Shown one piece after another: positions 108 through 17,181 of a stretch of DNA of 32,000 nt. Source of the DNA: Geotalea daltonii FRC-32 (GTDB taxonomy: Bacteria; Desulfobacterota; Desulfuromonadia; Geobacterales; Geobacteraceae). The first letter of the stretch is position 1, and each line of letters begins with the position of its first letter. A model generated the notes under the pieces. That model was not told the DNA's origin, ran no database searches, and saw only the letters and a list, made by a program, of their open reading frames with translations. Location of the stretch: NCBI RefSeq assembly GCF_000022265.1, contig NC_011979.1:1500001-1532000 (forward strand). Direction: 5' to 3'. The translations under genes and the position numbers were made by a program.

Positions 108-142
108 GACAACTTGTACGTCATTTGGCGGAGAGCGAAAAA

Positions 143-523
143 ATGGTAGGCGGCTTCAACCATAACATCAAATACAAAGGGGAGATTTTCCATGTCCAGA
201 CCGAGGACAGCGGCATAGCCAACCCCCACATCATTACCCTCCTTTACCGGGGCGGCACTATTCTCGCCTCAATCAAGACCAGCTACGCAGATATCATCAA
301 GGTGGACAACCTGGAACAGGTGGTTGAAGACCTGATGAAGGAGCAGCACAAGGACATGATGCGCCGGCTGAAGTCGGCCGAGTTCGACCAGCGCATCTTC
401 AATAAATCTCCGGATAATGCCGCTCCTGCCCCAGTGCCTGAAAAAAAACCGGCTGCCAATGGGGCTGGCACACAAAGTCTTGATGAAATCATCCTTGATT
501 ATCTCATTACCGACGATGACTAG
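143..523 (+). CDS. Conserved hypothetical protein (family not recognised)
   Basis: The ORF-track frame 125..523 opens on TTG. The in-frame ATG at 143 is preceded by GGAGAG (129-134) at good spacing, so it is taken as the start. N-terminal region GGFNHNIKYKGEIFHVQTEDSG, a Pro/Ala-rich linker and an acidic C-terminus. No catalytic motif recognised. Confidence 0.6.
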   Translation: MVGGFNHNIKYKGEIFHVQTEDSGIANPHIITLLYRGGTILASIKTSYADIIKVDNLEQVVEDLMKEQHKDMMRRLKSAEFDQRIFNKSPDNAAPAPVPEKKPAANGAGTQSLDEIILDYLITDDD

Positions 524-550
524 CCAATTACCTGAAAGGAAGAGCTTTAC

Positions 551-1378: not shown

Positions 1379-1415
1379 AGCTTGGATCATAAAAATAGAT
1401 GAGGGGATTTTGCAT

Positions 1416-2354
1416 ATGAGTAAGATGATTGCCACCAGGGATGCATACGGTGAGGTTCTTGCGGAACTGGGCGAGGAAAATAAAGATATAGTTGCCCTGG
1501 ATGCTGATCTTTCCGGTTCGACAAAAACCGGGGTGTTTGCCAAGAAGTTTCCGGAGCGATTCTTCAATATGGGCATTGCCGAAGCGAACATGGTCGGAAC
1601 GGCAGCAGGCCTGGCTGCGGTGGGAAAAATTCCATTTCTTTCCACCTTTGCCATCTTTGCTGCCGGTCGTGGCTGGGAGCAGATTCGCCAGTCAGCCGCT
1701 TATCCGAAGGCCAATGTCAAGGTCGTTGCCACCCACGGCGGCGTTACGGTTGGTGAGGACGGCGGATCCCATCAGTCCATCGAGGACATCGCCATCATGC
1801 GTGCCATTCCCAATATGACAGTGGTAGTCCCTGCCGACGGAGTTGAGACCAAAGGGGCAATCCGGGCGGCAGCCGCTGCCAAAGGGCCTTTCTACATCAG
1901 GCTCGGCCGCAACAAGGTTCAGACCATTTTCCCTGAAGACCATGTTTTCCAGATCGGCAAAGGGAGTGAACTTGCCTCGGGCAGCGACATGACCTTCATC
2001 ACGACCGGCCTCATGACCGCCCAGGCGCTGGCCGCTGCTGAACAGCTGAAGAAAGAGGGAGTCTCCGCCCGTGTCGTCCACATTGGCACCGTAAAGCCAC
2101 TTGACCGGGAGATCGTTATCAAGGCTGCCCGGGAAACCGGTGCCATTGTCACCGCCGAAGAGCACTCCATCATCGGCGGACTGGGGGGAGCCGTTGCCGA
2201 ACTGCTGGCGGAGACCTGCCCGACACCGGTGAAGCGGGTAGGCATCAATGACCGTTTCGGCACCTCCGGCAAGGCGGAAGAACTGCTCAAATACTTCGGC
2301 CTTATGCCCGAAGATCTTGTGGAAGCAGCAAAGGAAGTACTCGCGAGGAAATAA
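1416..2354 (+). CDS. Transketolase, C-terminal (pyrimidine-binding plus C-terminal domain) subunit
   Basis: The ORF-track frame starts at 1311 inside the upstream gene. ATG 1416 is preceded by GAGGGG (1401-1406) and gives MSKMIATRDAYGE... Motifs FPERFFNMGIAEANMVGTAAGLA and THGGVTVGEDGGSHQ are typical of this subunit. Confidence 0.9.
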   Translation: MSKMIATRDAYGEVLAELGEENKDIVALDADLSGSTKTGVFAKKFPERFFNMGIAEANMVGTAAGLAAVGKIPFLSTFAIFAAGRGWEQIRQSAAYPKANVKVVATHGGVTVGEDGGSHQSIEDIAIMRAIPNMTVVVPADGVETKGAIRAAAAAKGPFYIRLGRNKVQTIFPEDHVFQIGKGSELASGSDMTFITTGLMTAQALAAAEQLKKEGVSARVVHIGTVKPLDREIVIKAARETGAIVTAEEHSIIGGLGGAVAELLAETCPTPVKRVGINDRFGTSGKAEELLKYFGLMPEDLVEAAKEVLARK

Positions 2355-2899
2355 TGTTCCTGCACCCGCTCAAATCTTCTGCCGGATTCACCTACCTTGC
2401 CGCCCTGATGATCGTCATCATCATGGGCATCATGCTGGGGGTGGCGGGGCAGTCGTGGAAGATGATCATGGACCGGGAGCGGGAAGCGGAGCTTTTGTGG
2501 GTGGGGACGCAATATCGGGAAGCCATGCTGCACTGGCGCAATTTTCGTCACGGCGAGGGGGCAATGCCCTTGGGTGATATCAAGCATCTAGCACAAGATC
2601 CTCGATCTCTACAGAATGTTAAGCATCTGCGCAAACTTTACCCTGATCCTATTACCGGAAAAGAGTGGAAAATAATAAAGGATCCCCAAAAGGGTATTCT
2701 TGGGATCGCCAGTTCCAGTGATAAGGAACCCATTAAGCAGGCTAATTTCCCTGCAGATTACACCCAGTTCGAAGGGAAAAAGAAATACAGTGAATGGGAG
2801 TTCCGGTGGGATGTCATCCCGCCTAAAAAGGCTGCAACAACGACTATCAGCGGCTTACAGACCTCCACATCACCGGTAAAAACATCACCAGGACCTTGA
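2354..2899 (+). CDS. Prepilin-type N-terminal domain protein (pseudopilin-like, GspG-like fold suspected)
   Basis: The N-terminus KSSAG/FTYLAALMIVIIMGIMLGV resembles a class III (prepilin peptidase) signal followed by a hydrophobic helix. Downstream, REAELLWVGTQYREAM and DPITGKEW resemble GspG-like pseudopilin motifs. ATG 2354 overlaps the transketolase stop codon (TAATG). Confidence 0.55.
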   Translation: MFLHPLKSSAGFTYLAALMIVIIMGIMLGVAGQSWKMIMDREREAELLWVGTQYREAMLHWRNFRHGEGAMPLGDIKHLAQDPRSLQNVKHLRKLYPDPITGKEWKIIKDPQKGILGIASSSDKEPIKQANFPADYTQFEGKKKYSEWEFRWDVIPPKKAATTTISGLQTSTSPVKTSPGP

Positions 2900-2933
2900 T
2901 AAACTTTCCTGCCATTGCTTCACAGGAGTCTGA

Positions 2934-4439
2934 TTGATCTTTAAGAGCCTCACCACACGGGTAATAGTCATCTCCATCCTGCTGCTCGTCTTCGGCATCA
3001 GCACCTTTGCCTTCGTCACCCTGCGCCGTGAGCAGATGCAGCTGATCAATGCCGCCCGGGAAAGCAGCGAGCTTCTGCTCAACACCATAGAGCGCAGTAC
3101 CTACAATTCCATGCGCATCGGCAACACGGAAGATGTGCAGACCATCCTAGAGCTTGTAGGGCAGAACCAGAAACTGCTCTCCGTCCGCATATTTCATCCC
3201 CACGGCGTTGTCCTCAAATCCTCCCGGCCCAGCGAGGTCGGCAAGCCTGTTGACGACCGGGACTACCAGCTGTTCATCAACAACAGGAAAGACGGCGTTT
3301 TTTATCTGGAGGGTCACGGGGAAGTCCTGGGCATGTTGAAGCCCATCTATAACGATGAACCGTGCCACGTCTGCCATGGCCACAAGAGCCGGATCATCGG
3401 CCTGCTGAATGTCAATTATTCGCTTGTCGAGACCAGAAAGCGGATCATGGATGCCTCCAAGCTCTTTGTTTTTTCCACCATTGCCATCATATCCTTCCTC
3501 TCCCTTGCAATCTCCATGGTTATGGTGAAATTCGTCAAGAAGCCCCTCCATCTCCTGGCGGAAAACATGGCCAGGGTTGAGCAGGGTGATTTGTCGGTGC
3601 GGATGAAGCCCGATGGCAAGGATGAGATCGGCCGTCTCATAGTCAGTTTCGATTCCATGGTGGACCGACTCGATACTGCCAAGCAGGAGCTGGATCAATA
3701 TCATTTCCAGCAGATGGAGAGGGCAGACCGACTGGCTTCCGTCGGCGAAATGGCTGCAGGCATTGCCCACGAGATAAAAAACCCACTGACCGGCATTGCA
3801 GCAGCCATAACCATAATAAAAGAGGACTTCGCTCCCTCCGACTCACGCACCACCATTGTCGATGAGGTACTGGAGCAGATCAAGAGGCTCGACAAGACGG
3901 TTAACGACCTGTTGTTTTTCGGCAAGCCGGCGCAACCGGAGCCCGCCTTTACCGATATAAATTCAACCATACGGAAAACCCTCAAGTTCGCTTCCCAGCA
4001 TCGGGGAAGCAAAAATATCGAGAAAAAGCTGGAACTTCAGGAAGATCTGCCACCGGTGTATGTGGACCCGAAACAGATCCAGCAGGTTTTGCTCAACCTG
4101 ATTCTCAATGCCATGCAGGCAATGCATGACGGCGGAACACTGACCATAAGAAGTGCATTCGAGAAAAAAGAGCAGGACTGGGTTCTTATCATGGTCAAGG
4201 ATACCGGACAGGGGATTCCTGCCCAGATCCTGGAGAAGATCTTTACGCCGTTTTTTACGACAAAGGCACAGGGGACCGGCCTTGGTCTGGCCATCTGCCA
4301 TAAGCTCGTGTCGCAGCACAATGGAACCTTGACTGTTTCCAGCGAGGATGGCAAAGGAACCGAATTCATCGTAAGTTTACCGGCCCTCAGTCTGCAGTTT
4401 CCTGAAAATCAGGCTTTGGAGACCGCTGCAGCAATATAG
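2934..4439 (+). CDS. Sensor histidine kinase (2 TM, periplasmic loop with CxxCH, HAMP, HisKA, HATPase_c)
   Basis: TTG start 5 nt after AGGAG (2924-2928). TM1 at about aa 10-30 and TM2 at about aa 178-200. HAMP-like segment after TM2, H-box AHEIKNPL, N-box LNLILNAMQA, G1 DTGQGI, F-box FTPFFTTK, G2 GTGLGLAI. CHVCH at aa 144-148 lies in the periplasmic loop. Confidence 0.9.
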   Translation: MIFKSLTTRVIVISILLLVFGISTFAFVTLRREQMQLINAARESSELLLNTIERSTYNSMRIGNTEDVQTILELVGQNQKLLSVRIFHPHGVVLKSSRPSEVGKPVDDRDYQLFINNRKDGVFYLEGHGEVLGMLKPIYNDEPCHVCHGHKSRIIGLLNVNYSLVETRKRIMDASKLFVFSTIAIISFLSLAISMVMVKFVKKPLHLLAENMARVEQGDLSVRMKPDGKDEIGRLIVSFDSMVDRLDTAKQELDQYHFQQMERADRLASVGEMAAGIAHEIKNPLTGIAAAITIIKEDFAPSDSRTTIVDEVLEQIKRLDKTVNDLLFFGKPAQPEPAFTDINSTIRKTLKFASQHRGSKNIEKKLELQEDLPPVYVDPKQIQQVLLNLILNAMQAMHDGGTLTIRSAFEKKEQDWVLIMVKDTGQGIPAQILEKIFTPFFTTKAQGTGLGLAICHKLVSQHNGTLTVSSEDGKGTEFIVSLPALSLQFPENQALETAAAI

Positions 4440-4496
4440 CCATACAATTAGATCCAGTCGCTGCTTTTTTACTACTTCTGGAAAAGGGGAATTGCC

Positions 4497-5867
4497 TTGA
4501 GAAAGACAAGAATACTGGTGGTTGATGATGAGCACTTGATCCGTTGGTCACTGGAACAGAATCTGAAAAAGCAGGGTTATGAAGTCTTTACCGCCGGCAA
4601 TGGTGAAGATGCTCTTCGTCTGGTGCGTGAGGAGCAACCTGAGCTGGTACTGCTTGATATTCAACTGCCCGGCATTGGCGGACTTGAGGTTCTGGAAAAG
4701 GTCAAGGAATTCGATGACGAGATAGTAGTCATCATGCTCACGGCCCATGGCGGTCTGGAAACAGCCGTAAACACCATGCGTATGGGCGCCTACGATTATA
4801 TCAACAAGCCCTTTAACCTGGATGAGCTCTCCATTGTCATAAAGAAGGCGCTGGAAACTTCCGATCTGCGTCGCGAAGTAGTTCAGTTGAGAAGTGAGCA
4901 CAAAAAGCTGGGTCCCCCAAAGATTATCGGTACCAGCAAGCATATGAAAAATGTTTTGGACATGATGGGCAAGGTTGCCAAGAGTGAAGCATCCACCGTC
5001 CTCATTCAGGGTGAATCGGGTACCGGCAAGGAGCTGGTCGCAAAATGGATCCATTATCAGTCCAGCCGTGCAGAAAAACCCTTTGTCGCTATAAATTGTG
5101 CGGCCGTCCCGGCAACCCTTCTGGAGAGTGAGCTTTTCGGCCATGAAAAGGGGGCCTTTACCGATGCCAAAACCGCAAAAAAAGGGCTGTTTGAACTTGC
5201 CGATGGAGGGACCGTATTTCTCGATGAGATCGGCGATATGGAGATGGGGATGCAGGCAAAGCTCCTCAGATTCCTTGAGGACAGAACCTTCAGGCGCATC
5301 GGTGGCGCCAAGGTTATATCTGTCGATGTGCGGATTATTTCAGCGACCAACAAGGAGCTACTCAAGGCCATCGAAGAGAAGTCTTTCCGCAACGACCTCT
5401 ACTACCGGTTGCAAGTGATCCCTATTTTCCTTCCTGCTTTGAGGGAGAGGAGGGACGATATCATCCAACTTGCCAATTTCTTCATGGAATCCTTCGGCAG
5501 GGAATTCAACAAGTCGGTAAAATCCATCTCAAGCATGGCTGAAAAGATGCTCATTGATTATAGCTGGCCAGGCAATATCAGAGAACTTAAAAATGTTATT
5601 GAACGGGCTATCATCCTTGGGACCGAGGACACCCTGCTCATCGAAAATCTGCCGCTTGAGATAATTGCGAAAAGTTCCGCATCCACAGTGCCAGTTTCTA
5701 CGTTCAAACTGCCACCAGAAGGGGTTGATATCGAAGAGGTAGAAAAAGAACTCATAAGGCAATCGCTGGAGATAACCGATTGGAATCAATCAAAGGCCGC
5801 CAAAAAACTTAACCTGGGCATAGATGCTTTCAGGTACCGCATGAAGAAATTTGGTTTTTTAAAATAA
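4497..5867 (+). CDS. Sigma-54-dependent response regulator (REC, AAA+ sigma-54 interaction domain, Fis-type HTH; NtrC family)
   Basis: TTG start after AAGGGGA. REC domain with VVDDE and LLDIQLPG (phospho-Asp). Walker A GESGTGKE, ESELFGHEKGAFTDA (GAFTGA-loop variant), Walker B VFLDEIGD, RIISATN. C-terminal HTH is NQSKAAKKLNLGIDAFRYRMKK. Confidence 0.92.
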   Translation: MRKTRILVVDDEHLIRWSLEQNLKKQGYEVFTAGNGEDALRLVREEQPELVLLDIQLPGIGGLEVLEKVKEFDDEIVVIMLTAHGGLETAVNTMRMGAYDYINKPFNLDELSIVIKKALETSDLRREVVQLRSEHKKLGPPKIIGTSKHMKNVLDMMGKVAKSEASTVLIQGESGTGKELVAKWIHYQSSRAEKPFVAINCAAVPATLLESELFGHEKGAFTDAKTAKKGLFELADGGTVFLDEIGDMEMGMQAKLLRFLEDRTFRRIGGAKVISVDVRIISATNKELLKAIEEKSFRNDLYYRLQVIPIFLPALRERRDDIIQLANFFMESFGREFNKSVKSISSMAEKMLIDYSWPGNIRELKNVIERAIILGTEDTLLIENLPLEIIAKSSASTVPVSTFKLPPEGVDIEEVEKELIRQSLEITDWNQSKAAKKLNLGIDAFRYRMKKFGFLK

Positions 5868-5958
5868 AATTTTCAACTCTGCCTATTTCCGTGAATTGTG
5901 ACAAACATAATAATAATGCCTCTTTACATTGAATTTCAGTTTTTGTTCCCTCCCCAAT

Positions 5959-5986
5959 GGGGCTTTGCTTCACAAAGAAAAGCCCC
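5959..5986 (+). promoter_or_regulatory. Inverted repeat, candidate upstream activator site (or RNA hairpin)
   Basis: GGGGCTTT (5959-5966) and AAAGCCCC (5979-5986) are exact reverse complements separated by 12 nt. The repeat lies about 105-130 bp upstream of the -24/-12 element at 6090-6105, the usual distance for enhancer-binding-protein sites. No T-run follows, so it is a poor terminator. Confidence 0.3.
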
Positions 5987-6089
5987 ACACATAACTATCT
6001 AAATCCTCAAGATATTTTTCTTTAAGTCTCTCAAGGGTCATGTCTGCACCACCGACTATTTAATCGGAAGATAAAATAATCATTGATGC

Positions 6090-6105
6090 GGGCATCGAAG
6101 TTGCA
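6090..6105 (+). promoter_or_regulatory. Sigma-54 (-24/-12) promoter for the NHL/cytochrome unit
   Basis: GGGCATCGAAGTTGCA compared with consensus TGGCACGNNNNTTGCW: GG at 6091-6092 and GC at 6103-6104 with exact consensus spacing, and TTGCA is perfect. Located 84 nt upstream of ATG 6189. Confidence 0.55.
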
Positions 6106-6188
6106 TTAATAGCAGCCTAGTAACCCTGCAATCAGACTAGATTCTTAATTTATATTAGAATATCTCCAATAATTACGGAGGCTTTCAG

Positions 6189-9035
6189 ATGATTCACGCA
6201 AAGCGCAACCTTACAACATTGCTTGTCGTCTCGCTGCTTGTCGCAGTCATTTCACTGCCGGGAACAATTTCTTTGGCGGCAGCGGTGGCCCCTGTGGCCA
6301 AGGCCATGCCTCCTGTCAGGGATGGGATGATGACGCCTGCGAGGATCGTTGTCGAATCTTCCGGCAACAATTACTATGTCACTGACCCTAGGGCCGGGGC
6401 TGTTTTGAAGTACAATCTTTATGGCCATCTGGTGCAGACCATAAAAACAACTGGTATTCCTCTTGGTATTGCCTTCGCGGGTAGTGATCTGCTGGTTACC
6501 TGCGGTAACTATGTTTCCGTTGTCAATCCCGGTACCGGCGCCGAGATCAGGCGTATTGGCGAACCAGGGGTTATCGCTAAAGCGACTGGTGTCGCTGTCG
6601 ATAGCCTTGGCTCCACATACGTTGCTGATGCTGCAAAGCATCAGGTTCACGTCTTTGCTGCTTCCGGTGTGTATGTGCGCTCGTTTGGCGGCCTGGGCAA
6701 GGCGGCCGGCTTTTTTCAGTATCCAGCTGGCCTTGCATACGACAAAGACCTCAACCGACTTGCTGTTGCAGACTCTATGAACGGCAGGGTTCAGCTTTTC
6801 GATGTGAATCCTTCTAGCCCCACTTATCTAACCAATGTGAAAACTATTGGCCTTGGTACCTTGCGTGATCAGCCTTTGGATTTTGTTGCTCCCCAAGGCG
6901 TCAGCTTTGAATATGATAAAGCTGGAAAGTTGAAAAGGATGTATGTGGTTGATACCTGGAAAAGCGGAATTCAGGTCATCGATCCACTGGACGGGGTGAA
7001 TGGTAGATATCTGTCTCTCGTTGGAGCTGGCGCAATCTCTGCTGGCTCCTATATCTACGGTATGCTGAATGGGGTTCAGGATTGGCAATTCCTGCTTCCC
7101 TCGGATGCTGCATTTGATCCAGTCTATAGCAGGCTTCTGGTACCTTCGGCCAACAGCAGTATTCAGATTATCGGTATTGACGGCGGCATGACCCCCTCTG
7201 ACAATAACCCGATCTATCTCAATATTGATGCATCCCCACTGAACACGAATTCTCCGAACTATGCAATTAGTGGAACGGTTAAACCTGGCTCTCAAATCAA
7301 GATAACGACAAATACCGGTGCCATTGCCGGTCTGGTCGAGCCGGTAGGTCAGGTTTGGAATGCTACCATCACCGGTTTGGCGTTGGGTGTCAATAAGATC
7401 ACTGTCCTGGCAACCGATGTAACGGGCAAAGAGTTGTCCAAAGAGATAAGTGTTCTGTACACCCTCAATGCTCCGTCACTTACCGTAACAACGGCCACTG
7501 GTACAGTGGTCAACGGTCTTTCTACGGCTTTGTCCGGCACCGTGGACGCCGATTGCACGGTAAATATAATAAATAATACTACGGGAATTACAAGCACGGC
7601 GGTTGTGACAGGAACATCGTGGAATGGAACGGTAACCCTTTCCAATAACGCCGCCAACAATTTCACGGTAACGGCAAGTAAACCCGGTAGCAACACTGCC
7701 TCTACAAGTGTGACGATTATAAGTGATACGACTGCACCTTCTCTGAATATATCCGCTCTTCCCGATAACAGCTACAGCAGTGGCACAATGACTCAGAATA
7801 TTTCGGGATACGTGCAGGATGCAAATCCCTCTACCGTATCGGTTTCTGTGAATGGTGGTGCTGCGGCCATTTATTCGACACCGTTGCCCGCAGCCTCCTT
7901 CAGCGCTTCGGTCACTCTTCAGCAGGGTGCCAATACCATAACCGTTCAAGCGACTGACCTTGCGGGTAATACGTCTTTCGTCAACACCAGGACGATCAGC
8001 TACCAGCCGACCAGGCCTGTATTGACCCTGGGTGCTGCAACCCCTGCCGATAACTCCTTTACAAATTCAGCTACTGTCTCCGTCAGCGGTACGGTAACAC
8101 CTGTCAATTCTGTCGTTACCATCACCAATAACGGCGTGGCTGTCGCCGGGGTCACTAACGATGCCGCCGGCAATTGGTCGGCGCCAGTCACGGGCCTGCC
8201 TCTGGTGAACGGTCAAAACGTCATAGTGATTAGTGCAAATGCCGGTGCTGGTGATGCCAGTCTGAAGCGTACTGTCACCCTTGATACAACCGTGCCTGGT
8301 CTGGCAATTACATCGCCTGCAGCGGACATTTCCATCAATGATCCCAGTATTGAAATAGCCGGTACGGTTTCGGCTGACGCAGGCGGTTACCCGACATTGA
8401 CCGCCATGGTAAATTCAACTCCGGTCACCCCGACCTTGACCAATGGAACTTTTGTCTTGTACCCGGGTGCTTATCTTGCCGAAGGTCCTAACACCATCAC
8501 GGTGACTGCGACTGATTCAGCTAACAATCCCCCTGTTATCCAGGTGCGCAATATCAATTACGACATAACGCCGCCTGCTCTTACTCTTGGTTCAACATAT
8601 GCCGGTTACCCCAAGACCATAAGCGGTACAGTTGAAAGCCAAGCCAGTATCACCGTTAAAGATGGAGCTACGTCCTTCCCCGTAGTCGTTACTGCTGGCC
8701 AGTGGACTGCCAATCTGTCTTCGGCAAGTTACAGCAGGGATACCCTCCAGATTAAAGCAACTGATGCCGCAGGCAATATAAGTGTGATTACGGGTCTGAG
8801 TTCTTCCTATACCAAACCCTCCGGCGACTTAAATGCTGATAGTCTTGTCAATACGGTAGATGTGCAACTGGCGCTGGATTTTGCTTACGGGCGCAAGGTG
8901 CCTACACAGGAACAGCTATTGCAAGGCGATATCGGACCACTTCTGAATGGGTTTGCTAATCCAAACGGCGTCATAGATTTGTCGGATGCAATCCTTATTC
9001 GCAAAAAAGCAGTTGATAGCACTTTTACCTGGTAA
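6189..9035 (+). CDS. Secreted NHL-repeat beta-propeller protein with an array of Ig-like domains and a C-terminal dockerin-like module
   Basis: RBS ACGGAGG before ATG 6189. Signal peptide ...SLAAAVAPVAKA. NHL-type repeats (YVTDPRAGAVLKYN, GVAVDSLGSTYVADAAKHQVHVF, PAGLAYDKDLNRLAVADSMNGRVQLFD). About 6-7 Ig-like modules of roughly 90 aa share the recurring pattern ISGTV...G.N.ITV.ATD.AGN. The C-terminus has EF-hand-like loops DLNADSLVNTVD and NPNGVIDLSD. Confidence 0.85.
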   Translation: MIHAKRNLTTLLVVSLLVAVISLPGTISLAAAVAPVAKAMPPVRDGMMTPARIVVESSGNNYYVTDPRAGAVLKYNLYGHLVQTIKTTGIPLGIAFAGSDLLVTCGNYVSVVNPGTGAEIRRIGEPGVIAKATGVAVDSLGSTYVADAAKHQVHVFAASGVYVRSFGGLGKAAGFFQYPAGLAYDKDLNRLAVADSMNGRVQLFDVNPSSPTYLTNVKTIGLGTLRDQPLDFVAPQGVSFEYDKAGKLKRMYVVDTWKSGIQVIDPLDGVNGRYLSLVGAGAISAGSYIYGMLNGVQDWQFLLPSDAAFDPVYSRLLVPSANSSIQIIGIDGGMTPSDNNPIYLNIDASPLNTNSPNYAISGTVKPGSQIKITTNTGAIAGLVEPVGQVWNATITGLALGVNKITVLATDVTGKELSKEISVLYTLNAPSLTVTTATGTVVNGLSTALSGTVDADCTVNIINNTTGITSTAVVTGTSWNGTVTLSNNAANNFTVTASKPGSNTASTSVTIISDTTAPSLNISALPDNSYSSGTMTQNISGYVQDANPSTVSVSVNGGAAAIYSTPLPAASFSASVTLQQGANTITVQATDLAGNTSFVNTRTISYQPTRPVLTLGAATPADNSFTNSATVSVSGTVTPVNSVVTITNNGVAVAGVTNDAAGNWSAPVTGLPLVNGQNVIVISANAGAGDASLKRTVTLDTTVPGLAITSPAADISINDPSIEIAGTVSADAGGYPTLTAMVNSTPVTPTLTNGTFVLYPGAYLAEGPNTITVTATDSANNPPVIQVRNINYDITPPALTLGSTYAGYPKTISGTVESQASITVKDGATSFPVVVTAGQWTANLSSASYSRDTLQIKATDAAGNISVITGLSSSYTKPSGDLNADSLVNTVDVQLALDFAYGRKVPTQEQLLQGDIGPLLNGFANPNGVIDLSDAILIRKKAVDSTFTW

Positions 9036-9089
9036 CCTCGGACACGGTAATCAGAAACTACGTATATAAATGCTTTCAGGAGCGTAAAC

Positions 9090-12000
9090 ATGAATGGACC
9101 AATTAAAAATGCTCTGCTGACACTGATCTTGGTCACAATTGTGACAATAACAGCGCAGGCGCAATACTTGCCACCTTCGCATGATTTCGGCCAACAGAGT
9201 TGCGGTGCCTGTCATGCGACTGGTACTGATATTACCAATGCTGCTAATAATAATGTCTGTATGATATGTCACAAGGTCGGTAGTGCTTCTACCACGAACA
9301 AGCAGTTCTTTGTGGGAGATATGGCCAATCCATTTGGGACGACTATCGAAAGCAACGAGAATGGCAGTTATTCACACAGTTCTCACGAGTGGTCTGCAAC
9401 CGACGATAACCCGGCAGCAGGGGCTCTACCACCTGTTAATCCTGTCATGAATACCATTAATTCCTACAACGGTAGCTTGAGTTGTAACCGTTGCCATGGA
9501 ATACACGCGCCATCACCGCTTCCTCACCTGCTCAGGCAGTCCATGAACAACGATGAGCTCTGTCTCGATTGTCATCGTCTTAGGAACACAAACTCTCACA
9601 TATACGGCTCACATCCTGTAAACATGGACTACAACGCCGTTGCTTCAAGCAAACCCACTAAATATGCAGCTTCGCCGGTTAATAGTAACCCTGCCAACCC
9701 AACATCCGATATGAAATTGGCTAACGGCAAAGTCGTATGTACAACTTGTCACAATGCTCACTTCACCGACTCCAGCAGCAAGACCCTTGATAACTTTTCA
9801 ACGGCAATGGTAAACGGGCTTGCCCCCTCCAAAGGTTACTTGCTGCGGACAGATTACCGGTACGTGAACTATACTACGCTGGACAGCCCCAATATCTGTA
9901 CCAACTGCCACACAAGTAAGCATGAACATAATGGCGGCAACCAGAGGGTGCGTTGTACTGACTGTCACAGTGGCCACGTGGATTACGATCCCTTCGCAAC
10001 TGACCCCGCGACAATGGTACCAAACGTTTATATGGTCAAACGTTATATGAACTGGTCATCGGCCACGGGCTGGAAGGATAACAAGAAGCTAACCACGCCC
10101 AAGCAGACGCTGTTCCAGGATGCATCTGCCCAGAGACTCTACAAAAGGGCGGATGGCAAGGGTGTCTGCCAGAGTTGTCATGAGGTGCCACCTTGGAAAG
10201 CAATTGCTCCGAGTGGCAATCCTTACCCAGAGGCACATGATATTGTCAATGCCGTTGCAGCTGATTGTAATCGCTGCCACAGCCACGACAGCCGGTGGAG
10301 TTTCGCCGCCTCCTGTTTAGAATGCCATGGTCAACCGCCCACCGCCACCACTGCCGCAGCCGGTTATCAAGGCAATGAAGCTGTTTCAGCCCATACCAAG
10401 CATTCCAACAATTACAGCTTCAAGTGTCTTGAGTGTCACTATGACGGTGCCTCTCTCGCACTGCATGACAAAGGCAATTACCAGGATGTCTACCACCGTC
10501 CCGACTATGTAGACGCCGATGCTGTGGCCTCAAAGTTTGGATCTCTCCCTTCCTACAGTACAAGCGCCAATAAATGTTCTACCGTTTACTGCCACAGTAA
10601 TGGCGCACCCAAGCTTGCATTCAAAACCTACTCAATAGCATACAAAACGACGCCCAATTGGTTTGGCGAGCAAACAACATGTAATTCCTGTCATGAGGCA
10701 GCACCGACAACAAATGCCCATGGCGCCCACCTTGCTAAAAATTATACCTGCCAAAACTGCCATGCCGCCACTGCCAGCGGTTCAGGTGCAATAATCGACA
10801 AAACTAAACATGCCGACGGCAATAAACAGCTGGAGTTTGCATCAGTGGGGCTGTCCTTTGCCCTTAATGGAAACTCCTGCTCGACGATATACTGCCACAG
10901 TGATGGGTCTGGTAATTATTCCGCCCCCACTTGGACTGATTCGTCAACCGGCCAGTGCGGAACCTGCCACGGCACAACCGACAGAACCAGCGGTGCCCAT
11001 CAGGCGCACCTGTCTCAGACAACACTCTATGGGCCAAAACTCACACAATTCGACACAGTGGTTGCCTGTAACAAATGTCATGGCCCCGACTACACAACCA
11101 AGCATCTTAACGGTACGACAGTAGATGTCAGCTCCTCAACCTGTTCGGCCTCATGCCATGCCAACGGCATCGGCTCTGCCTCCTGGGTAACCGGAAGAAC
11201 CGGCATTACCTGTGAAAGCTGTCATACGGGCACCCTGTCCAATGTGAACGGTGCGACTGCACCCGATAAGTCTTTCGCAGCCAGCCGGGGCCATAACATG
11301 AACTCCAGCAGCACCGGCGTCATCATGAACTACAACTGTACCTCGTGCCATGATGCTAATGCCAAGCACATCGACCCTGCTGCTCACGACACCAGGTTGT
11401 TGCCGGCCTACACGGGTGCACTTAACAATGAGTGTAACGCTTGTCACAACACCGCAACGGTGCCTACGGAGAGCAAAAAGGACATGCTCACGCACGTTAT
11501 TGATCTTGTAGGCACTCCGAGTGCTTGTAACGTCTGCCATGATCCCCATGGTTCTGCTAACCGGAACATGATTAGGGCGAAAATTGTGGCGCGTGATGGT
11601 TTTAACAATATAACCTGCAACATTTCTTACAAGAACAGCACTTCGTTGGTCTCAACAGTTAAGGTTGGTAACCTGTATACGGGCCTTTGCCAGGTCTGCC
11701 ATACTTCGACCAAGTTCTACAAAAACAACACTGAGGAAACCAATCATTACTCGACCGGTTGTTTCGACTGCCACAAACATAAGGCTGCTGATAAGACCTA
11801 TGCATTCGAGCCTGGCGGTGGTGGTTGCAATGGTTGTCATGGCTACCCACCTGTTCAGACAATGCAGGCGAATTACGGTACTCTTGGTAATTACTCAGGT
11901 GCTCGTCTTCAAAACTACTCCGGTGGTGGCGGCGCCCACGATGTGCCTGGTCACATTGCTGCCAACTCTCGTCCTTCACAAGGCTGGACAAACTGTCTCA

Positions 12001-12215
12001 CTTGCCATTACGGGTCAAGCCAGCACATGAAGGGTGACTATACAAAACCATCCACCATTAATGTCACCGTTGATCCGAAATACAAATTCGATTCCAAACT
12101 GCCGATTACTTACTCCGGCAACCAGAATAATGATCGCAGCCTCTACCAATCCGGTACATGCTCCAATGTCAGCTGCCACTTCCAGGCGTCACCGAAGTGG
12201 AGTAGCGAAAAGTAA
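9090..12215 (+). CDS. Multiheme c-type cytochrome, about 27 heme-binding motifs
   Basis: RBS CAGGAG (9078-9083). Signal peptide ending TAQA/QY. My by-eye count is 23 CxxCH, 3 CxxxxCH (CSTVYCH, CSTIYCH, CSNVSCH) and 1 CxxxCH (CSASCH). The C-terminal two thirds resemble the Geobacter CxxxxCH...CxxCH domain family (TIGR01904, from memory). The 54-nt gap to the upstream gene suggests co-transcription. Confidence 0.9.
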   Translation: MNGPIKNALLTLILVTIVTITAQAQYLPPSHDFGQQSCGACHATGTDITNAANNNVCMICHKVGSASTTNKQFFVGDMANPFGTTIESNENGSYSHSSHEWSATDDNPAAGALPPVNPVMNTINSYNGSLSCNRCHGIHAPSPLPHLLRQSMNNDELCLDCHRLRNTNSHIYGSHPVNMDYNAVASSKPTKYAASPVNSNPANPTSDMKLANGKVVCTTCHNAHFTDSSSKTLDNFSTAMVNGLAPSKGYLLRTDYRYVNYTTLDSPNICTNCHTSKHEHNGGNQRVRCTDCHSGHVDYDPFATDPATMVPNVYMVKRYMNWSSATGWKDNKKLTTPKQTLFQDASAQRLYKRADGKGVCQSCHEVPPWKAIAPSGNPYPEAHDIVNAVAADCNRCHSHDSRWSFAASCLECHGQPPTATTAAAGYQGNEAVSAHTKHSNNYSFKCLECHYDGASLALHDKGNYQDVYHRPDYVDADAVASKFGSLPSYSTSANKCSTVYCHSNGAPKLAFKTYSIAYKTTPNWFGEQTTCNSCHEAAPTTNAHGAHLAKNYTCQNCHAATASGSGAIIDKTKHADGNKQLEFASVGLSFALNGNSCSTIYCHSDGSGNYSAPTWTDSSTGQCGTCHGTTDRTSGAHQAHLSQTTLYGPKLTQFDTVVACNKCHGPDYTTKHLNGTTVDVSSSTCSASCHANGIGSASWVTGRTGITCESCHTGTLSNVNGATAPDKSFAASRGHNMNSSSTGVIMNYNCTSCHDANAKHIDPAAHDTRLLPAYTGALNNECNACHNTATVPTESKKDMLTHVIDLVGTPSACNVCHDPHGSANRNMIRAKIVARDGFNNITCNISYKNSTSLVSTVKVGNLYTGLCQVCHTSTKFYKNNTEETNHYSTGCFDCHKHKAADKTYAFEPGGGGCNGCHGYPPVQTMQANYGTLGNYSGARLQNYSGGGGAHDVPGHIAANSRPSQGWTNCLTCHYGSSQHMKGDYTKPSTINVTVDPKYKFDSKLPITYSGNQNNDRSLYQSGTCSNVSCHFQASPKWSSEK

Positions 12216-12262
12216 TTGTGACGTTTTGCCAGAGTTAATTGGATAGATAAATATTATGTCAA

Positions 12263-12284
12263 AGGGAGGGTTCCCACCCTCCCT
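12263..12284 (+). other. GC-rich hairpin between the two cytochrome genes
   Basis: AGGGAGGGT (12263-12271), loop TCCC, ACCCTCCCT (12276-12284): a perfect 9-bp stem. It is followed by ATTGAGG with no T-run, so it is not a canonical terminator. It may be a partial attenuator or an mRNA-stability element. Confidence 0.35.
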
Positions 12285-12341
12285 ATTGAGGATGTCAGTA
12301 TGAGATTACAATCGTTTTCAGTTATATTTAAGGAGTCAAGT

Positions 12342-15300
12342 ATGAAGACATGTCACAGCGCAGGATACTTCAAACAACTGATTCTATTCTTGCTGTTGTC
12401 CTTAATGACTGTATTTGTCTTTACGGGGAATGCGCTGGCACTGACTGGCAACAAAATTGACAGTTGTTCAGACTGTCATGGCGAACGGCTAACCGGTGAC
12501 GTCAGACCTGTAGACTGGGGTTATAGAAACATAAGCACCGGTGGTGTTGTGGGAAACCACAGGACCCATATGGCCAATGGTGCATCGGTGGCAAGTTGTG
12601 ATACCTGCCATGTGAAGAATACTACTTTTGGCCACCGTGACGGCAAGATCAGCTTTCGGGCAGATATAAACGCTTCACCGGCGACTACCACCTATCTTAA
12701 AGCCGGAGTGCTTGGTTTTGTTAACCAGACCTCCAATCCGGTCATGACCAATGCAAACTGCTCCAATGTTAACTGCCACTTTGAAACAACCTCTCCAAGT
12801 TGGGGCCTGACTGCAGCGGCAGCCGGCCTTAATTGTGAGTCATGCCATAACTCTGCAAATACATCCTCCGCTCACACCAAACATAAAGAAAAATACGGCA
12901 GTTTAGGTTCCAACTACCTTGATTCTTGTTCTACATGCCATCCCAATAGAAGCACTTTTTCGCATGCAACGAGCGCAAACAATGCTGGTCGTAACATAGC
13001 CATTACAGTTAGCAGCTATGCTGGATCAAATTTTAAATATCTTCCAAGTGAAGCCGCCAGCCGTGTTCTAGGTTCCTGTAATAACCTTTACTGCCACAGT
13101 TCAGGGCAGTCTGCAACCGGTGGTTCAACTCCAGTTTACGCAACACCCAATTGGGGGGATACTGCCTCTGGTGCCTGCGGAAGCTGCCATGCAACAACAA
13201 CCCTGGCTTCCGGCAGCCACACCAAGCACTTCAGCGGCATTTCCCCGAATACGAACTGCGGCAATTGCCACGCCGGTGCAACCAGCACCAGCTATGCATC
13301 AACGCTGCATGTTGATACCTTCATCAACGTAACCGGTGCCTATACACAGGGCAAGTCCCATGCGCCCGGCAACGGTTATGGTGCATGTAATGCCGCAAGC
13401 TGTCATGACAACGGCAAAGGCGTACCGGCAGCGACCCCGACATGGGGTAACTCAACAGTACCTGCATGTACCGCCTGTCATACGCTGATCCCCGCTGACA
13501 ACAGCCATAACAAGCACGTAACCACCACCACATACAAGAAAGCAGCCTGCGGTGACTGTCACACCGGCTATGTTCAGGGGGCAACCGCAGCAGCAAATCA
13601 CCTGAATACAACAATCGAAGTCAACACCGGCGGCTATCCGTCACCGAAAGCAAAAAACAGTACAGTAGGAAGCTGTGCCACCTCCTACTGCCACAGCTCC
13701 GGCCAGTCATTAACCGGTGACGCAGCACCAGTCTACGGCACAGCACCGACCTGGGGTCAGTCAGTAGCCTGCGGAAGCTGCCATGCAACAACAACCCTGG
13801 CTTCCGGCAGCCACACCAAGCACTTCAGCGGCATTTCCCCGAATACGAACTGCGGCAACTGTCACGCCGGTGCAACCAGCACCAGCTATGCATCAACGCT
13901 GCATGTTGATACCTTCATCAACGTAACCGGTGCCTATACACAGGGCAAGTCCCATGCGCCCGGCAACGGTTATGGTGCATGTAATGCCGCAAGCTGTCAT
14001 GACAACGGCAAAGGCGTACCGGCAGCGACCCCGACATGGGGTAACTCAACAGTACCTGCATGTACCGCCTGTCATACGCTGATCCCCGCTGACAACAGCC
14101 ATAACAAGCACGTAACCACCACCACATACAAGAAAGCAGCCTGCGGTGACTGTCACACCGGCTATGTTCAGGGGGCAACCGCAGCAGCAAATCACCTGAA
14201 TACAACAATCGAAGTCAACACCGGCGGCTATCCGTCACCGAAAGCAAAAAACAGTACAGTAGGAAGCTGTGCCACCTCCTACTGCCACAGCTCCGGCCAG
14301 TCATTAACCGGTGGCGCAGCACCAGTCTACGGCACAGCACCGACCTGGGGTCAGTCAGTAGCCTGCGGAAGCTGCCATGCAACAACAACCCTGGCTTCCG
14401 GCAGCCACACCAAGCACTTCAGCGGCATTTCCCCGAATACGAACTGCGGCAACTGCCACGCCGGTGCAACCAGCACCAGCTATGCATCAACGCTGCATGT
14501 TGATACCTTCATCAACGTAACCGGTGCCTATACACAGGGCAAGTCCCATGCGCCCGGCAACGGTTATGGTGCATGTAATGCCGCAAGCTGTCATGACAAC
14601 GGCAAAGGCGTACCGGCAGCGACCCCGACATGGGGTAACTCAACAGTACCTGCATGTACCGCCTGTCATACGCTGATCCCCGCTGATAACAGCCATAACA
14701 AGCACGTAACCACCACCACATACAAGAAAGCAGCCTGCGGTGACTGTCACACCGGCTATGTTCAGGGGGCAACCGCAGCAGCAAATCACCTGAATACAAC
14801 AATCGAAGTCAACACCGGCGGCTATCCGTCACCGAAAGCAAAAAACAGTACAGTAGGAAGCTGTGCCACCTCCTACTGCCACAGCTCCGGCCAGTCATTA
14901 ACCGGTGGCGCAGCACCAGTCTACGGCACAGCACCGACCTGGGGTCAGTCAGTAGCCTGCGGAAGCTGCCATGCAACAACAACCCTGGCTTCCGGCAGCC
15001 ACACCAAGCACTTCAGCGGCATTTCCCCGAATACGAACTGCGGCAACTGTCACGCCGGTGCAACCAGCACCAGCTATGCATCAACGCTGCATGTTGATAC
15101 CTTCATCAACGTAACCGGTGCCTATACACAGGGCAAGTCCCATGCGCCCGGCAACGGTTATGGTGCATGTAATGCCGCAAGCTGTCATGACAACGGCAAA
15201 GGCGTACCGGCAGCGACCCCGACATGGGGTAACTCAACAGTACCTGCATGTACCGCCTGTCATACGCTGATCCCCGCTGACAACAGCCATAACAAGCACG

Positions 15301-17120
15301 TAACCACCACCACATACAAGAAAGCAGCCTGCGGTGACTGTCACACCGGCTATGTTCAGGGGGCAACCGCAGCAGCAAATCACCTGAATACAACAATCGA
15401 AGTCAACACCGGCGGCTATCCGTCACCGAAAGCAAAAAACAGTACAGTAGGAAGCTGTGCCACCTCCTACTGCCACAGCTCCGGCCAGTCATTAACCGGT
15501 GGCGCAGCACCAGTCTACGGCACAGCACCGACCTGGGGTCAGTCAGTAGCCTGCGGAAGCTGCCATGCAACAACAACCCTGGCTTCCGGCAGCCACACCA
15601 AGCACTTCAGCGGCATTTCCCCGAATACGAACTGCGGCAACTGCCACGCCGGTGCAACCAGCACCAGCTATGCATCAACGCTGCATGTTGATACCTTCAT
15701 CAACGTAACCGGTGCCTATACACAGGGCAAGTCCCATGCGCCCGGCAACGGTTATGGTGCATGTAATGCCGCAAGCTGTCATGACAACGGCAAAGGCGTA
15801 CCGGCAGCGACCCCGACATGGGGTAACTCAACAGTACCTGCATGTACCGCCTGTCATACGCTGATCCCCGCTGATAACAGCCATAACAAGCACGTAACCA
15901 CCACCACATACAAGAAAGCAGCCTGCGGTGACTGTCACACCGGCTATGTTCAGGGGGCAACCGCAGCAGCAAATCACCTGAATACAACAATCGAAGTCAA
16001 CACCGGCGGCTATCTCTCCCCTAAAGCCAAGAACAGCCTGGTTAGCAGTTGTACTACTTCCAGCTGCCACTCAAATGGAAAAGGCAGCTCTCAATCAGTT
16101 ACCTGGGGACAGGCTTCACTTAACTGTAAGTCCTGCCATCCAGCCTTGGGTGGCGCACATTCCCGCCACATGGGTGGTTTCGACGGTGTCAACGCCATGG
16201 ATTGGGCCAACCTGCCCTTCTACCAGTATACCTCCACCAAATCCACTGGTGCTGACAGTGGTACGCCTGCCAACTATGCATTCGGCTGCGCCAACTGTCA
16301 CCCAATTACTTCTTTGAGCCATGTCAATGGCACCATTGATGTCACACTCGATACCACCGGCAACGTTAGTTCGCTGCGTGCGAAAAATGCTTCGGCAGGT
16401 TTCGCCGGCACAACGGTAGGTACTAATACTCTCAAGTGCCAGAACGTATACTGTCACAGTGACGGTAAGGGTGGGCAAACCACCACTTTGGCCTGGAATC
16501 AGACCTCAACTGCCTCCGAACGCTGCGCCAAGTGCCATGGCAATTCACCAGCTGATGCCACACATCAGGCTCATGTAAGTGGCGGAATTCATGCTGACAA
16601 TGTCTTCAACGGCACAAGCGGATTACTTTCTGCCGGCTCCACAGGGTCCGTGAGCCATGGCATCGCCGGCCAGCAAACGACAATCAACTGTAACATCTGT
16701 CACAGTGGAACAGTTACCTCTGCACGCAACGCTGCAAATAGTGCCTGTGTCTCCTGCCACGGCGGAGATGCATCGCCTGTCTACGGCTCCATTGCCGACC
16801 TGAGCAACCACGTCAACGGCAATGTCAATGTTTCCTTTGCCGATACGACCATCTACTCCAAGGCACAGTTGAGGCCTACCAGCTTCGCCGGATATACCAG
16901 CGGTACCGCAGGTTGGGTTCGCAACGGCGACAACTACAAAAATGGTGCAGCAGCCTTTGACTACTCTAAAAACAAGCTGGCTGCCCAGGCAACCTGGACC
17001 GCAGGTCCTGCTGGGCAAAGCTCCTGTTCCAACGTCGTTTGTCATAACATGAAAGCAGGCCAGCCAGCTGTAAAATGGAGTGATACCCTCTCCTGCGATA
17101 GCTGCCACACTAGCCTGTAA
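12342..17120 (+). CDS. Giant multiheme c-type cytochrome (1592 aa, about 44 heme-binding motifs) with internal tandem repeats
   Basis: The ORF-track frame opens at 12300. ATG 12342 sits 6 nt after AAGGAG (12330-12335) and gives a signal peptide MKTCHSAGYFKQLILFLLLSLMTVFVFTGNALA. My by-eye count is 30 CxxCH and 14 CxxxxCH. The protein is built from modules of about 99 aa: CxxxxCH, about 22-25 aa, CxxCH, a short [SA]HxxH segment, CxxCH. Confidence 0.9.
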   Translation: MKTCHSAGYFKQLILFLLLSLMTVFVFTGNALALTGNKIDSCSDCHGERLTGDVRPVDWGYRNISTGGVVGNHRTHMANGASVASCDTCHVKNTTFGHRDGKISFRADINASPATTTYLKAGVLGFVNQTSNPVMTNANCSNVNCHFETTSPSWGLTAAAAGLNCESCHNSANTSSAHTKHKEKYGSLGSNYLDSCSTCHPNRSTFSHATSANNAGRNIAITVSSYAGSNFKYLPSEAASRVLGSCNNLYCHSSGQSATGGSTPVYATPNWGDTASGACGSCHATTTLASGSHTKHFSGISPNTNCGNCHAGATSTSYASTLHVDTFINVTGAYTQGKSHAPGNGYGACNAASCHDNGKGVPAATPTWGNSTVPACTACHTLIPADNSHNKHVTTTTYKKAACGDCHTGYVQGATAAANHLNTTIEVNTGGYPSPKAKNSTVGSCATSYCHSSGQSLTGDAAPVYGTAPTWGQSVACGSCHATTTLASGSHTKHFSGISPNTNCGNCHAGATSTSYASTLHVDTFINVTGAYTQGKSHAPGNGYGACNAASCHDNGKGVPAATPTWGNSTVPACTACHTLIPADNSHNKHVTTTTYKKAACGDCHTGYVQGATAAANHLNTTIEVNTGGYPSPKAKNSTVGSCATSYCHSSGQSLTGGAAPVYGTAPTWGQSVACGSCHATTTLASGSHTKHFSGISPNTNCGNCHAGATSTSYASTLHVDTFINVTGAYTQGKSHAPGNGYGACNAASCHDNGKGVPAATPTWGNSTVPACTACHTLIPADNSHNKHVTTTTYKKAACGDCHTGYVQGATAAANHLNTTIEVNTGGYPSPKAKNSTVGSCATSYCHSSGQSLTGGAAPVYGTAPTWGQSVACGSCHATTTLASGSHTKHFSGISPNTNCGNCHAGATSTSYASTLHVDTFINVTGAYTQGKSHAPGNGYGACNAASCHDNGKGVPAATPTWGNSTVPACTACHTLIPADNSHNKHVTTTTYKKAACGDCHTGYVQGATAAANHLNTTIEVNTGGYPSPKAKNSTVGSCATSYCHSSGQSLTGGAAPVYGTAPTWGQSVACGSCHATTTLASGSHTKHFSGISPNTNCGNCHAGATSTSYASTLHVDTFINVTGAYTQGKSHAPGNGYGACNAASCHDNGKGVPAATPTWGNSTVPACTACHTLIPADNSHNKHVTTTTYKKAACGDCHTGYVQGATAAANHLNTTIEVNTGGYLSPKAKNSLVSSCTTSSCHSNGKGSSQSVTWGQASLNCKSCHPALGGAHSRHMGGFDGVNAMDWANLPFYQYTSTKSTGADSGTPANYAFGCANCHPITSLSHVNGTIDVTLDTTGNVSSLRAKNASAGFAGTTVGTNTLKCQNVYCHSDGKGGQTTTLAWNQTSTASERCAKCHGNSPADATHQAHVSGGIHADNVFNGTSGLLSAGSTGSVSHGIAGQQTTINCNICHSGTVTSARNAANSACVSCHGGDASPVYGSIADLSNHVNGNVNVSFADTTIYSKAQLRPTSFAGYTSGTAGWVRNGDNYKNGAAAFDYSKNKLAAQATWTAGPAGQSSCSNVVCHNMKAGQPAVKWSDTLSCDSCHTSL
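13173..16015 (+). repeat. 594-bp in-frame tandem repeat, about 4.8 copies, near-identical at nucleotide level
   Basis: The string gcctgcggaagctgccatgc recurs at 13173, 13767, 14361, 14955 and 15549 (period 594). Five near-identical antisense ORFs at 594-bp spacing in the ORF track confirm it. The repeat decays at about 16015, where ggctatccgtca becomes ggctatctctcc. Confidence 0.95.
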
Positions 17121-17144
17121 CAAATACCTCAGTTGTTATTCCAG

Positions 17145-17181
17145 CCGGTCCATCTGTAAGAGATGGACCGGTTTTTTTTTT
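17145..17181 (+). terminator. Rho-independent terminator closing the cytochrome unit
   Basis: CCGGTCCATCT (17145-17155), loop GTAAG, AGATGGACCGG (17161-17171): an 11-bp perfect stem followed by 10 T (17172-17181), 25 nt after stop codon 17120. Confidence 0.88.

Follow-up and report, generated by a model that had tools for sequence, protein, structure and literature searches.

The NHL-omcP-omcO locus (GSU2914-2913-2912 in G. sulfurreducens; Gmet_0556-0557-0558 in G. metallireducens) is among the few Geobacter cytochrome clusters whose deletion reportedly impairs iron-oxide reduction in G. metallireducens. Here we describe its counterpart in Geotalea daltonii FRC-32 within a window of 32,000 nucleotides (nt) (contig NC_011979.1, positions 1,500,001 to 1,532,000 of the forward strand; coordinates below are positions in this window), in which genes for a sensor histidine kinase with a heme-binding motif, an NtrC-type activator, a protein with an NHL propeller and immunoglobulin (Ig)-like domains, and two giant multiheme cytochromes follow one another. 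Comparison with related genomes supports the view that kinase, regulator, sigma-54 promoter, NHL gene and cytochromes are one conserved, regulated module. We consider it likely that the heme-motif kinase acts through the NtrC-type activator on a sigma-54-dependent operon for the NHL/Ig protein and the giant cytochromes, and that these serve electron transfer to external acceptors. That the kinase, the activator and the promoter travel with the operon across the family provides a concrete regulatory circuit hypothesis for a module of extracellular electron transfer.

Published accounts describe Gmet_0556 as an NHL protein, Gmet_0557 as having 4 hemes and Gmet_0558 as having 27 hemes and 67% identity to OmcO. 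Cytochrome genes of G. metallireducens are reported there to be needed for Fe(III) oxide reduction (PMC10989804, PMC9070056 and a Tenderiales preprint), Gmet_0556 to be important for extracellular iron reduction, and knockouts of the G. metallireducens orthologues to affect both insoluble Fe(III) oxide reduction and cell-to-cell electron transfer. The supplement of Leang 2009 (PMC2725144) assigns to the operon GSU2914-GSU2913-GSU2912, whose first gene encodes an NHL repeat protein, the predicted RpoN promoter no. 7 (PromScan), TTGGCACCATAATTGCT. NHL proteins also accompany cytochromes in Desulfovibrio ferrophilus, in the Uet cluster and beside omcS. The first-pass annotation of the window, made from the letters alone, had set the cluster apart from the described porin-cytochrome conduits. 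An undescribed system it is not: judged by gene order, heme counts and the PMC2725144 supplement, on which the mapping of the GSU and Gmet tags rests rather than on an annotated record, the cluster is the Geotalea orthologue of the NHL-omcP-omcO locus, and an RpoN promoter was predicted for it in 2009. The cluster as such is a known locus, and little in it would surprise Geobacter specialists.

The regulator pair and a sigma-54 promoter are conserved with the operon

Alignment of 28 full-length NHL homologues led to 64 genome loci, mostly from Geobacteraceae and other Desulfuromonadales, which were annotated by six-frame open reading frame (ORF) calling and by BLAST searches with the window proteins as queries. 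The window and 22 related loci of Geobacteraceae have linked genes for the kinase (2934-4439 in the window), the activator (4497-5867), the NHL/Ig protein (6189-9035) and the 27-heme cytochrome (9090-12215), often together with a gene for a 38-44-heme cytochrome (12342-17120 in the window); this is the co-occurrence that the first-pass annotation had proposed checking by synteny. Transketolase and pilin-like genes lie upstream in many of these loci. L015 and L017 are without the transketolase genes, and five loci (L012, L018, L019, L022 and L025) have neither these nor the pilin-like gene and keep only the kinase, the regulator and the operon. What accompanies the operon throughout is thus the regulator pair rather than the pilin-like gene.

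The activator comprises a receiver domain, an AAA+ domain with the Walker A motif GESGTGK and a GAFTDA loop, and a Fis-type helix-turn-helix, with Pfam matches to Response_reg (2.5e-31), Sigma54_activat (4.8e-72) and HTH_8 (2.9e-12) that bear out the earlier call of an NtrC-type protein. Its orthologues are 77-100% identical across the orthologous loci, and the GAFTDA loop, an activation-compatible variant among the enhancer-binding proteins of D. vulgaris (PMC4641369), is kept in 23 of 24 orthologous activator ORFs.

Between the activator and NHL genes lies a gap of 321 nt (5868-6188) for which an inverted repeat and a good -24/-12 promoter had been claimed, and both are present. The promoter site, GGGCATCGAAGTTGCA at 6090-6105 (+ strand), has the correct GG-N10-GC spacing and lies 99 nt before the NHL ATG. 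When GG-N10-GC sites were scored against TGGCACG-N4-TTGCW, a site scoring at least 12.5 was located 88-184 nt upstream of the NHL gene in all 23 orthologous loci, the window included, against a background at that threshold of 0.19 sites per kb per strand computed over all 2.4 Mb scanned. Where omcP precedes the NHL gene, a second sigma-54 site stands in front of omcP. An alignment of 16 upstream regions leaves only the GGCA...TTGC block and the ribosome-binding site invariant, the rest having diverged. Comparative support is thus strong for 6090-6105 as the sigma-54 promoter of the NHL operon.

These data also bear on the possibility that the kinase and regulator adjoin the operon merely by inherited gene order and control other targets. 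Most orthologous loci share the unrelated transketolase genes, so plain vertical synteny is present, and no enhancer site was found in the orthologous gaps scanned. However, the five loci named above retain the regulator pair outside the transketolase and pilin-like context, and sigma-54 promoters occur where the pair adjoins the operon (23 of 23) and scarcely at all in paralogous modules, which have no kinase or regulator adjacent (0 of 15 before the NHL gene; 1 of 18 before the first gene). We therefore regard control of other targets only as very unlikely and favor regulation of the adjacent operon.

The kinase carries a predicted periplasmic heme sensor

The kinase consists of a first transmembrane helix, a PDC/PAS-like periplasmic domain of ~145 amino acids (aa) (loop at about residues 31-175), a second transmembrane helix, and HAMP, HisKA and HATPase_c domains. 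Its single CxxCH motif, CHVCH at aa 144-148 (nt 3363-3377), falls between the two membrane helices, in agreement with its earlier placement in a periplasmic loop. Every orthologous kinase has exactly one CxxCH, in which C..CH is invariant.

Several comparisons relate this domain to known heme-c sensors. The periplasmic loop matches PF21563 (Mcp40H-20_sensor) with E = 6.7e-4 and 20.4 bits, below the gathering score of 27, and five partial homologues of the sensor domain bear precomputed PF21563 annotation. A profile built from 16 orthologues has as its top PDB matches 3b47 (E = 0.007) and 3b42 (E = 0.018), the heme-c PAS-like sensor domains of the G. sulfurreducens chemoreceptors GSU0582 and GSU0935, with the alignments running through the CxxCH. 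An AlphaFold2 model of the domain, built from a small alignment of database matches (predicted local distance difference test, pLDDT, 77), shows an extracytoplasmic PAS/PDC fold that matches the WalK, CitA and DcuS sensors, and matches 3b42 with E = 1e-5. A domain of this kind would hold a single c-type heme. GSU2916, which by its locus number is the probable counterpart of this kinase in G. sulfurreducens, is listed among the two-component sensors of that species with one c-heme motif, and heme-c sensor domains of this sort couple changes in heme coordination to redox potential (PMC8396549).

The NHL/Ig protein

The first gene of the operon encodes 948 aa, comprising a signal peptide, a six-bladed NHL propeller (~37-330), a run of some six Ig-like domains (~344-870) and, at the C-terminus, a three-helix dockerin-like module (~880-948) predicted to bind Ca. 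Pfam recognizes NHL, Glucodextran_B, Big_13 and Big_6; Pfam and NCBIfam, which were used for all window proteins, agree with the domain calls for the kinase, the activator, the NHL/Ig protein and the cytochromes. In an AlphaFold2 model (pLDDT 85) the propeller matches TRIM2/3 NHL domains with a target-normalised template modeling score of ~0.8, and three C-terminal helices follow the Ig chain. The protein had been described as an NHL/Ig/dockerin protein; the propeller and the Ig chain stand, whereas the dockerin is weak. The Dockerin_1 match is below threshold (E = 0.014; 16 bits, the cutoff being 22.9) and covers the first loop only, and Dockerin_1 is matched in 6 of 29 members of the NHL family, the best at 4.8e-5. 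Over its full length the protein is 39% identical to the NHL protein of the G. grbiciae/G. metallireducens type.

To see in it a non-heme scaffold that organizes heme arrays, as was first suggested for the window, would restate a speculation already in the literature. A different role would follow if the propeller were catalytic or metal-binding, of lactonase, arylesterase or PAL type, and the cytochromes fed or drained electrons for a specific substrate. Weak propeller matches to SGL, arylesterase and peptidylglycine monooxygenase-lyase propellers point this way, as does the recurrence of pairs of NHL-propeller and multiheme cytochrome genes in distant phyla (L055-L067). Yet the best structural matches are NHL domains of protein interaction (TRIM2/3/71 type), and 71 hemes far exceed what a catalytic partner would need. 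A redox enzyme is in our judgment highly improbable, and a role for the protein as partner of cytochromes in electron transfer is preferred.

Two giant cytochromes complete a putative operon

Cytochrome 1 (1041 aa) has a Sec signal peptide, no lipobox and 27 heme motifs (23 CxxCH, one CxxxCH and three CxxxxCH). Two G. sulfurreducens proteins and one from G. grbiciae share 39-40% identity with it over 97-100% of its length. The G. grbiciae protein falls into one 90% cluster with G. metallireducens ABB30801.1, and the homologues from G. sulfurreducens and from the G. grbiciae/G. metallireducens cluster have the same 23+4 motif make-up. A 27-heme gene lies downstream of the NHL/Ig gene in a transketolase-kinase-regulator context in G. 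grbiciae (L069) and in 20 further loci. The G. grbiciae order is transketolase, a 191-aa gene, kinase, regulator, NHL (899 aa), tetraheme (280 aa) and 27-heme (1036 aa), which the published descriptions of Gmet_0556, Gmet_0557 and Gmet_0558 match. By its length, its 27 motifs and this context, cytochrome 1 is classed as OmcO-type.

Most orthologous loci also carry a tetraheme gene of ~280 aa, either between the NHL and 27-heme genes or before the NHL gene, which is missing from the window, from its close relative L004 and from L005. A tblastn search of the window with four orthologues of OmcP recovered neither the gene nor a remnant, the best match (E = 0.004) falling inside cytochrome 1, and apart from the cytochromes no window ORF has at least two CxxCH motifs.

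Cytochrome 2 (1592 aa) likely starts at 12342, because an AAGGAG ribosome-binding site precedes this codon. It has a Sec signal peptide and is a chain of ~14 triheme units, each of one CxxxxCH and two CxxCH, with 44 motifs in all (30 CxxCH and 14 CxxxxCH); NCBIfam assigns TIGR01904 fourteen times and TIGR04257 (nanowire_3heme) five times, and Cytochrome_C7 is matched as well. Sequence searches found no solved homologue of either cytochrome. The motif count of the two, 27 + 44 = 71, agrees with the earlier figure of about 71.

Within the cytochrome 2 gene, positions 13170-16018 (+ strand) hold 4.8 copies of a 594-nt unit (198 aa, six hemes) that differ from one another at 0-5 positions. The array was found by repeat search and a lag scan, Tandem Repeats Finder being blind to periods above 500. 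The near-identity of the units points to very recent amplification, a sign of heme-wire length changing through tandem duplication. In three independent short-read assemblies, the only ones with the exact NHL protein, the contigs that carry the locus all end at this array, inside cytochrome 2. Since the array breaks short-read assemblies, heme counts from draft genomes are unreliable and likely wrong, and the count of 44 itself hinges on the copy number of near-identical repeats. Giant cytochrome genes of relatives show recent duplications of their own, of 1476 nt at 100% in L009 (9144-14048) and of 276 nt at 98% in L019 (13606-17811). The 198-aa unit has 383 cluster representatives at E <= 1e-3 among 1.84 billion proteins, in proteins of up to 3917 aa, so modular giant cytochromes of this type are an established family.

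The nearest named relative, G. toluenoxydans JCM 15764 (L004), shows 97% protein identity and ~92-98% nucleotide identity over window positions 1-12805, where the alignment ends; identity is down to 66% toward the 3' end of cytochrome 1 (11501-12000). The L004 contig breaks off within cytochrome 2, and the truncated N-terminal ORF shares just 56% identity with the window protein; the body of cytochrome 2 differs between the two genomes while the flanks are ~95% identical. The distal cytochrome may have undergone allelic replacement or diverged rapidly. Locally, the cluster stands out in two ways, by the loss of omcP and by the very recent expansion of repeats in its 44-heme cytochrome.

The NHL gene and cytochrome 1 are separated by 54 nt and the two cytochromes by 126 nt, which with the start at 12342 reproduces the gaps first reported. 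An intrinsic terminator at 17143-17181 (+ strand) comprises a 13-bp stem with a 5-nt loop (17143-17173) and a T run that extends to 17181. It ranked first among the terminator-like sites scanned and is the strong terminator originally placed at 17145-17181. The genes past it are convergent, on the opposite strand and unrelated (DUF362/Fe-S, DUF2950, DUF3300, HycI and a GAF-sigma-54 regulator). Because of the short gaps, the single strong terminator and the convergent unrelated genes beyond it, 6189-17120 is best read as one operon. Inside the unit no further ORF of at least 100 aa exists that could encode a porin, a lipoprotein cytochrome or a heme lyase, as had been noted, and no porin gene was seen in the unit or in the orthologous loci; the claimed difference from porin-cytochrome conduits is upheld.

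The same gap in gene content favors a purely periplasmic role, in which the NHL protein and both giant cytochromes would form a redox-regulated capacitor or a relay spanning the periplasm, comparable to the poly-c7 dodecaheme cytochromes. A porin gene, secretion genes and lipoprotein signals are all missing from the unit, c7-type triheme modules make up cytochrome 2 (five TIGR04257 matches and Cytochrome_C7), PSORTb assigned no location to Gmet_0557 and Gmet_0558, and a periplasmic heme sensor is naturally suited to monitoring periplasmic charge. The architecture of propeller, Ig chain and dockerin-like module is, in contrast, typical of cell-surface or extracellular proteins, and the reported effects of the G. 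metallireducens knockouts concern insoluble acceptors and partner cells. With no export route encoded, this is the strongest of the three alternatives that we considered; we nevertheless hold a periplasmic store or wire to be unlikely and prefer transfer to external acceptors.

The upstream boundary and the pilin-like gene

The + strand gene run begins well before the kinase. From 551 to 17120 the ORF map shows two transketolase subunit genes, a 181-aa ORF (2354-2899), the kinase, the activator, the NHL/Ig gene and the two cytochromes, so that all the elements first noted do lie in one orientation. The ATG of the 181-aa ORF overlaps the stop codon of the transketolase gene (TAATG, 2352-2356), which implies translational coupling to the transketolase genes; the 181-aa gene, and perhaps the kinase and regulator, would then probably be co-transcribed with them. 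The first-pass annotation had presented the cluster as a self-contained system. As a conserved module of kinase, regulator, promoter, NHL gene and cytochromes this stands, but its upstream end is not clean.

The 181-aa protein had been called pseudopilin-like, a call that we retain in a weak form. Its N-terminus, G|FTYLAALMIV, is of prepilin type without Glu+5, and only this part of the protein resembles a prepilin; a conserved core, LRRLYxDPITGKEW...GIIGVASSS, is also present. No Pfam or NCBIfam match lies above threshold. All nine aligned orthologues match GspG/GspH N-termini weakly (best E = 0.005), the best PDB matches of the profile are geopilin/PilA N-termini, again weak (E = 0.15-1), and position +5 is Ala or Val throughout the orthologues. 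Five loci retain the other parts of the module without this gene, which is thus peripheral to it.

A proposed model for redox-regulated electron transfer

In the model that we propose, the periplasmic PAS/PDC-like domain of the kinase, with one covalent c-type heme, would report the periplasmic redox state or a heme ligand. The kinase would phosphorylate the NtrC-type activator, which would drive the sigma-54 promoter at 6090-6105 and so the transcription of a single operon, 6189-17120, up to the terminator, encoding the NHL/Ig protein and the 27- and 44-heme proteins. All three products would be exported by Sec, and the cytochromes would be matured by heme-attachment genes elsewhere in the genome. 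The G. metallireducens knockouts suggest, by analogy, that the three proteins act at or beyond the outer membrane and pass electrons to partner cells or insoluble Fe(III) oxide; the NHL/Ig protein would be an adhesion or organizing partner of the cytochromes. The regulatory half of the model is thus based on comparative genomics and the functional half on orthology to genes knocked out in another species; the latter fits the electron-transfer role first suggested for the window, which the orthologue knockouts would tie to insoluble or external acceptors.

Several observations weigh against this model. The unit contains no porin, lipobox or secretion gene, and a transcript shared with the transketolase genes may include the pilin-like gene and possibly the kinase and regulator, which would leave the unit not cleanly self-contained upstream. 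A conserved enhancer site was not found in 20 orthologous intergenic regions, and the sequence matches of the sensor domain are marginal (E = 0.007-0.018 in the PDB; under the gathering score in Pfam). OmcO and OmcP are reported in PMC9070056 as dispensable for Fe(III) oxide reduction in G. sulfurreducens, so function is not uniform across species, and the window as a whole has no gene for OmcP, which is essential in G. metallireducens.

A bolder version can be imagined in which the NHL/Ig/dockerin-like protein and the giant cytochromes form a porin-independent heme array at the outer surface or outside the cell, its length adjusted within populations as the near-identical 594-nt hexaheme repeats gain or lose copies and its expression set by a periplasmic heme sensor that reads electron backlog in the cell. 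We regard this as a speculative and rather improbable extension of the model.

Intergenic and leader elements

The inverted repeat in the gap between regulator and NHL gene (5958-5987; TGGGGCTTT-N12-AAAGCCCCA, 9+9) is unique in the window and folds at -15.8 kcal/mol (z = -3.9). No counterpart was found in 20 orthologous intergenic regions scanned, and a conserved enhancer at this site was rejected in favor of a lineage-specific element. In several orthologous loci only ~100 nt separate the regulator and NHL genes, with the regulator stop ~10 nt from the promoter. In the window the repeat is a candidate enhancer site or a candidate hairpin ending the regulator transcript.

Riboswitches and other known RNAs were considered, as GEMM-type elements occur upstream of other Geobacter cytochrome genes, and were dropped: Rfam gave no match in the window at the gathering score or in 5800-6300 at E <= 1. 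A CUCC...GGAG hairpin at 6160-6185, present in ~11-12 of 16 loci with pairing partners shifted in some, could mask the NHL ribosome-binding site. As an anti-Shine-Dalgarno element it was also set aside, with no RNAalifold consensus and z = -0.4 relative to shuffles. Between the cytochrome genes, a G+C-rich hairpin without a T run (12259-12289, + strand; GGGAGGGT-tccc-ACCCTCCC core) folds at -19.5 kcal/mol (z = -2.8) and may be an intra-operon element of processing, stability or attenuation.

Paralogous modules and neighboring genes

A paralogous module (L023 and L026-L054; for example L030, 8190-22640) consists of genes for a 158-aa pentaheme protein, a ~400-aa protein with 8-10 hemes and an NHL/Ig protein, a gap of ~500 nt, and giant cytochromes. 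It is widespread in Geobacteraceae and other Desulfuromonadales and has no adjacent regulator and no sigma-54 promoter. On a G. sulfurreducens-type contig (L068, 7324-18155), a second module with an 888-aa NHL protein and 27-, 24- and 18-heme cytochromes is located on the downstream side of the omcP-omcO operon, at a distance of a few kb, with the ResB and CcsA cytochrome-maturation genes after it. NHL-propeller genes also adjoin multiheme cytochrome genes (4-21 hemes) in L055-L067, metagenome-assembled genomes labelled Acidobacteriota, Verrucomicrobia, Gammaproteobacteria, Nitrospinota and others, which hints at a broad propeller-cytochrome partnership.

Beyond the terminator, a 945-aa regulator with GAF and sigma-54 AAA+ domains (24201-27038, - strand) has as its neighbors the DUF2950/DUF3300 pair (21265-23532) and the gene for a hydrogenase maturation protease (23646-24125). 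Two ORFs, of 412 aa (17550-18788) and 615 aa (27151-28998), have no family match.

Comparison with known systems

The closest described system is the NHL-omcP-omcO locus itself. The two share the order transketolase, pilin-like gene, one-CxxCH kinase, NtrC-type regulator, NHL/Ig gene and 27-heme gene, full-length identities of 39-40% for the NHL and 27-heme proteins, the 23+4 motifs and a sigma-54 promoter before the NHL gene. Unlike that locus, the window has no tetraheme OmcP gene, its gap between regulator and NHL gene has grown to 321 nt with a lineage-specific inverted repeat, and its operon includes a 44-heme cytochrome, which is found in other relatives too but not at that position in G. 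sulfurreducens or G. grbiciae.

For the sensor, the nearest counterparts are GSU0582 and GSU0935 (PDB 3B47 and 3B42), each with a periplasmic PDC/PAS-like domain between two transmembrane helices and one CxxCH near the C-terminus of the domain; the proximal His is residue 148 in the kinase and 143 and 144 in those proteins. They are chemoreceptors, whereas the output here is a histidine kinase, the sequence similarity is marginal, and the heme is predicted.

Porin-cytochrome conduits (Mtr, Pcc/Ext, PCC3 and Uet) are likewise clusters of multiheme cytochromes for transfer through or beyond the envelope, and the Uet cluster contains the NHL-repeat proteins UetH and UetI. The unit described here differs from them in having no genes for a beta-barrel porin, a lipoprotein cytochrome or a small periplasmic partner. 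The outer-membrane cytochrome clusters of Desulfovibrio ferrophilus (DFE_0451 and DFE_0463) resemble it in gene content, with NHL genes among multiheme cytochrome genes that have been implicated in electron exchange outside the cell; they differ in their cytochrome families and have no linked pair of heme-kinase and sigma-54 regulator. Finally, cytochrome 2 is a chain of triheme modules of the types seen in poly-c7 'nanowire' and CxxxxCH/CxxCH giant cytochromes (TIGR04257 and TIGR01904), and it is set apart from them by its 4.8 repeat units, which are almost identical in DNA.

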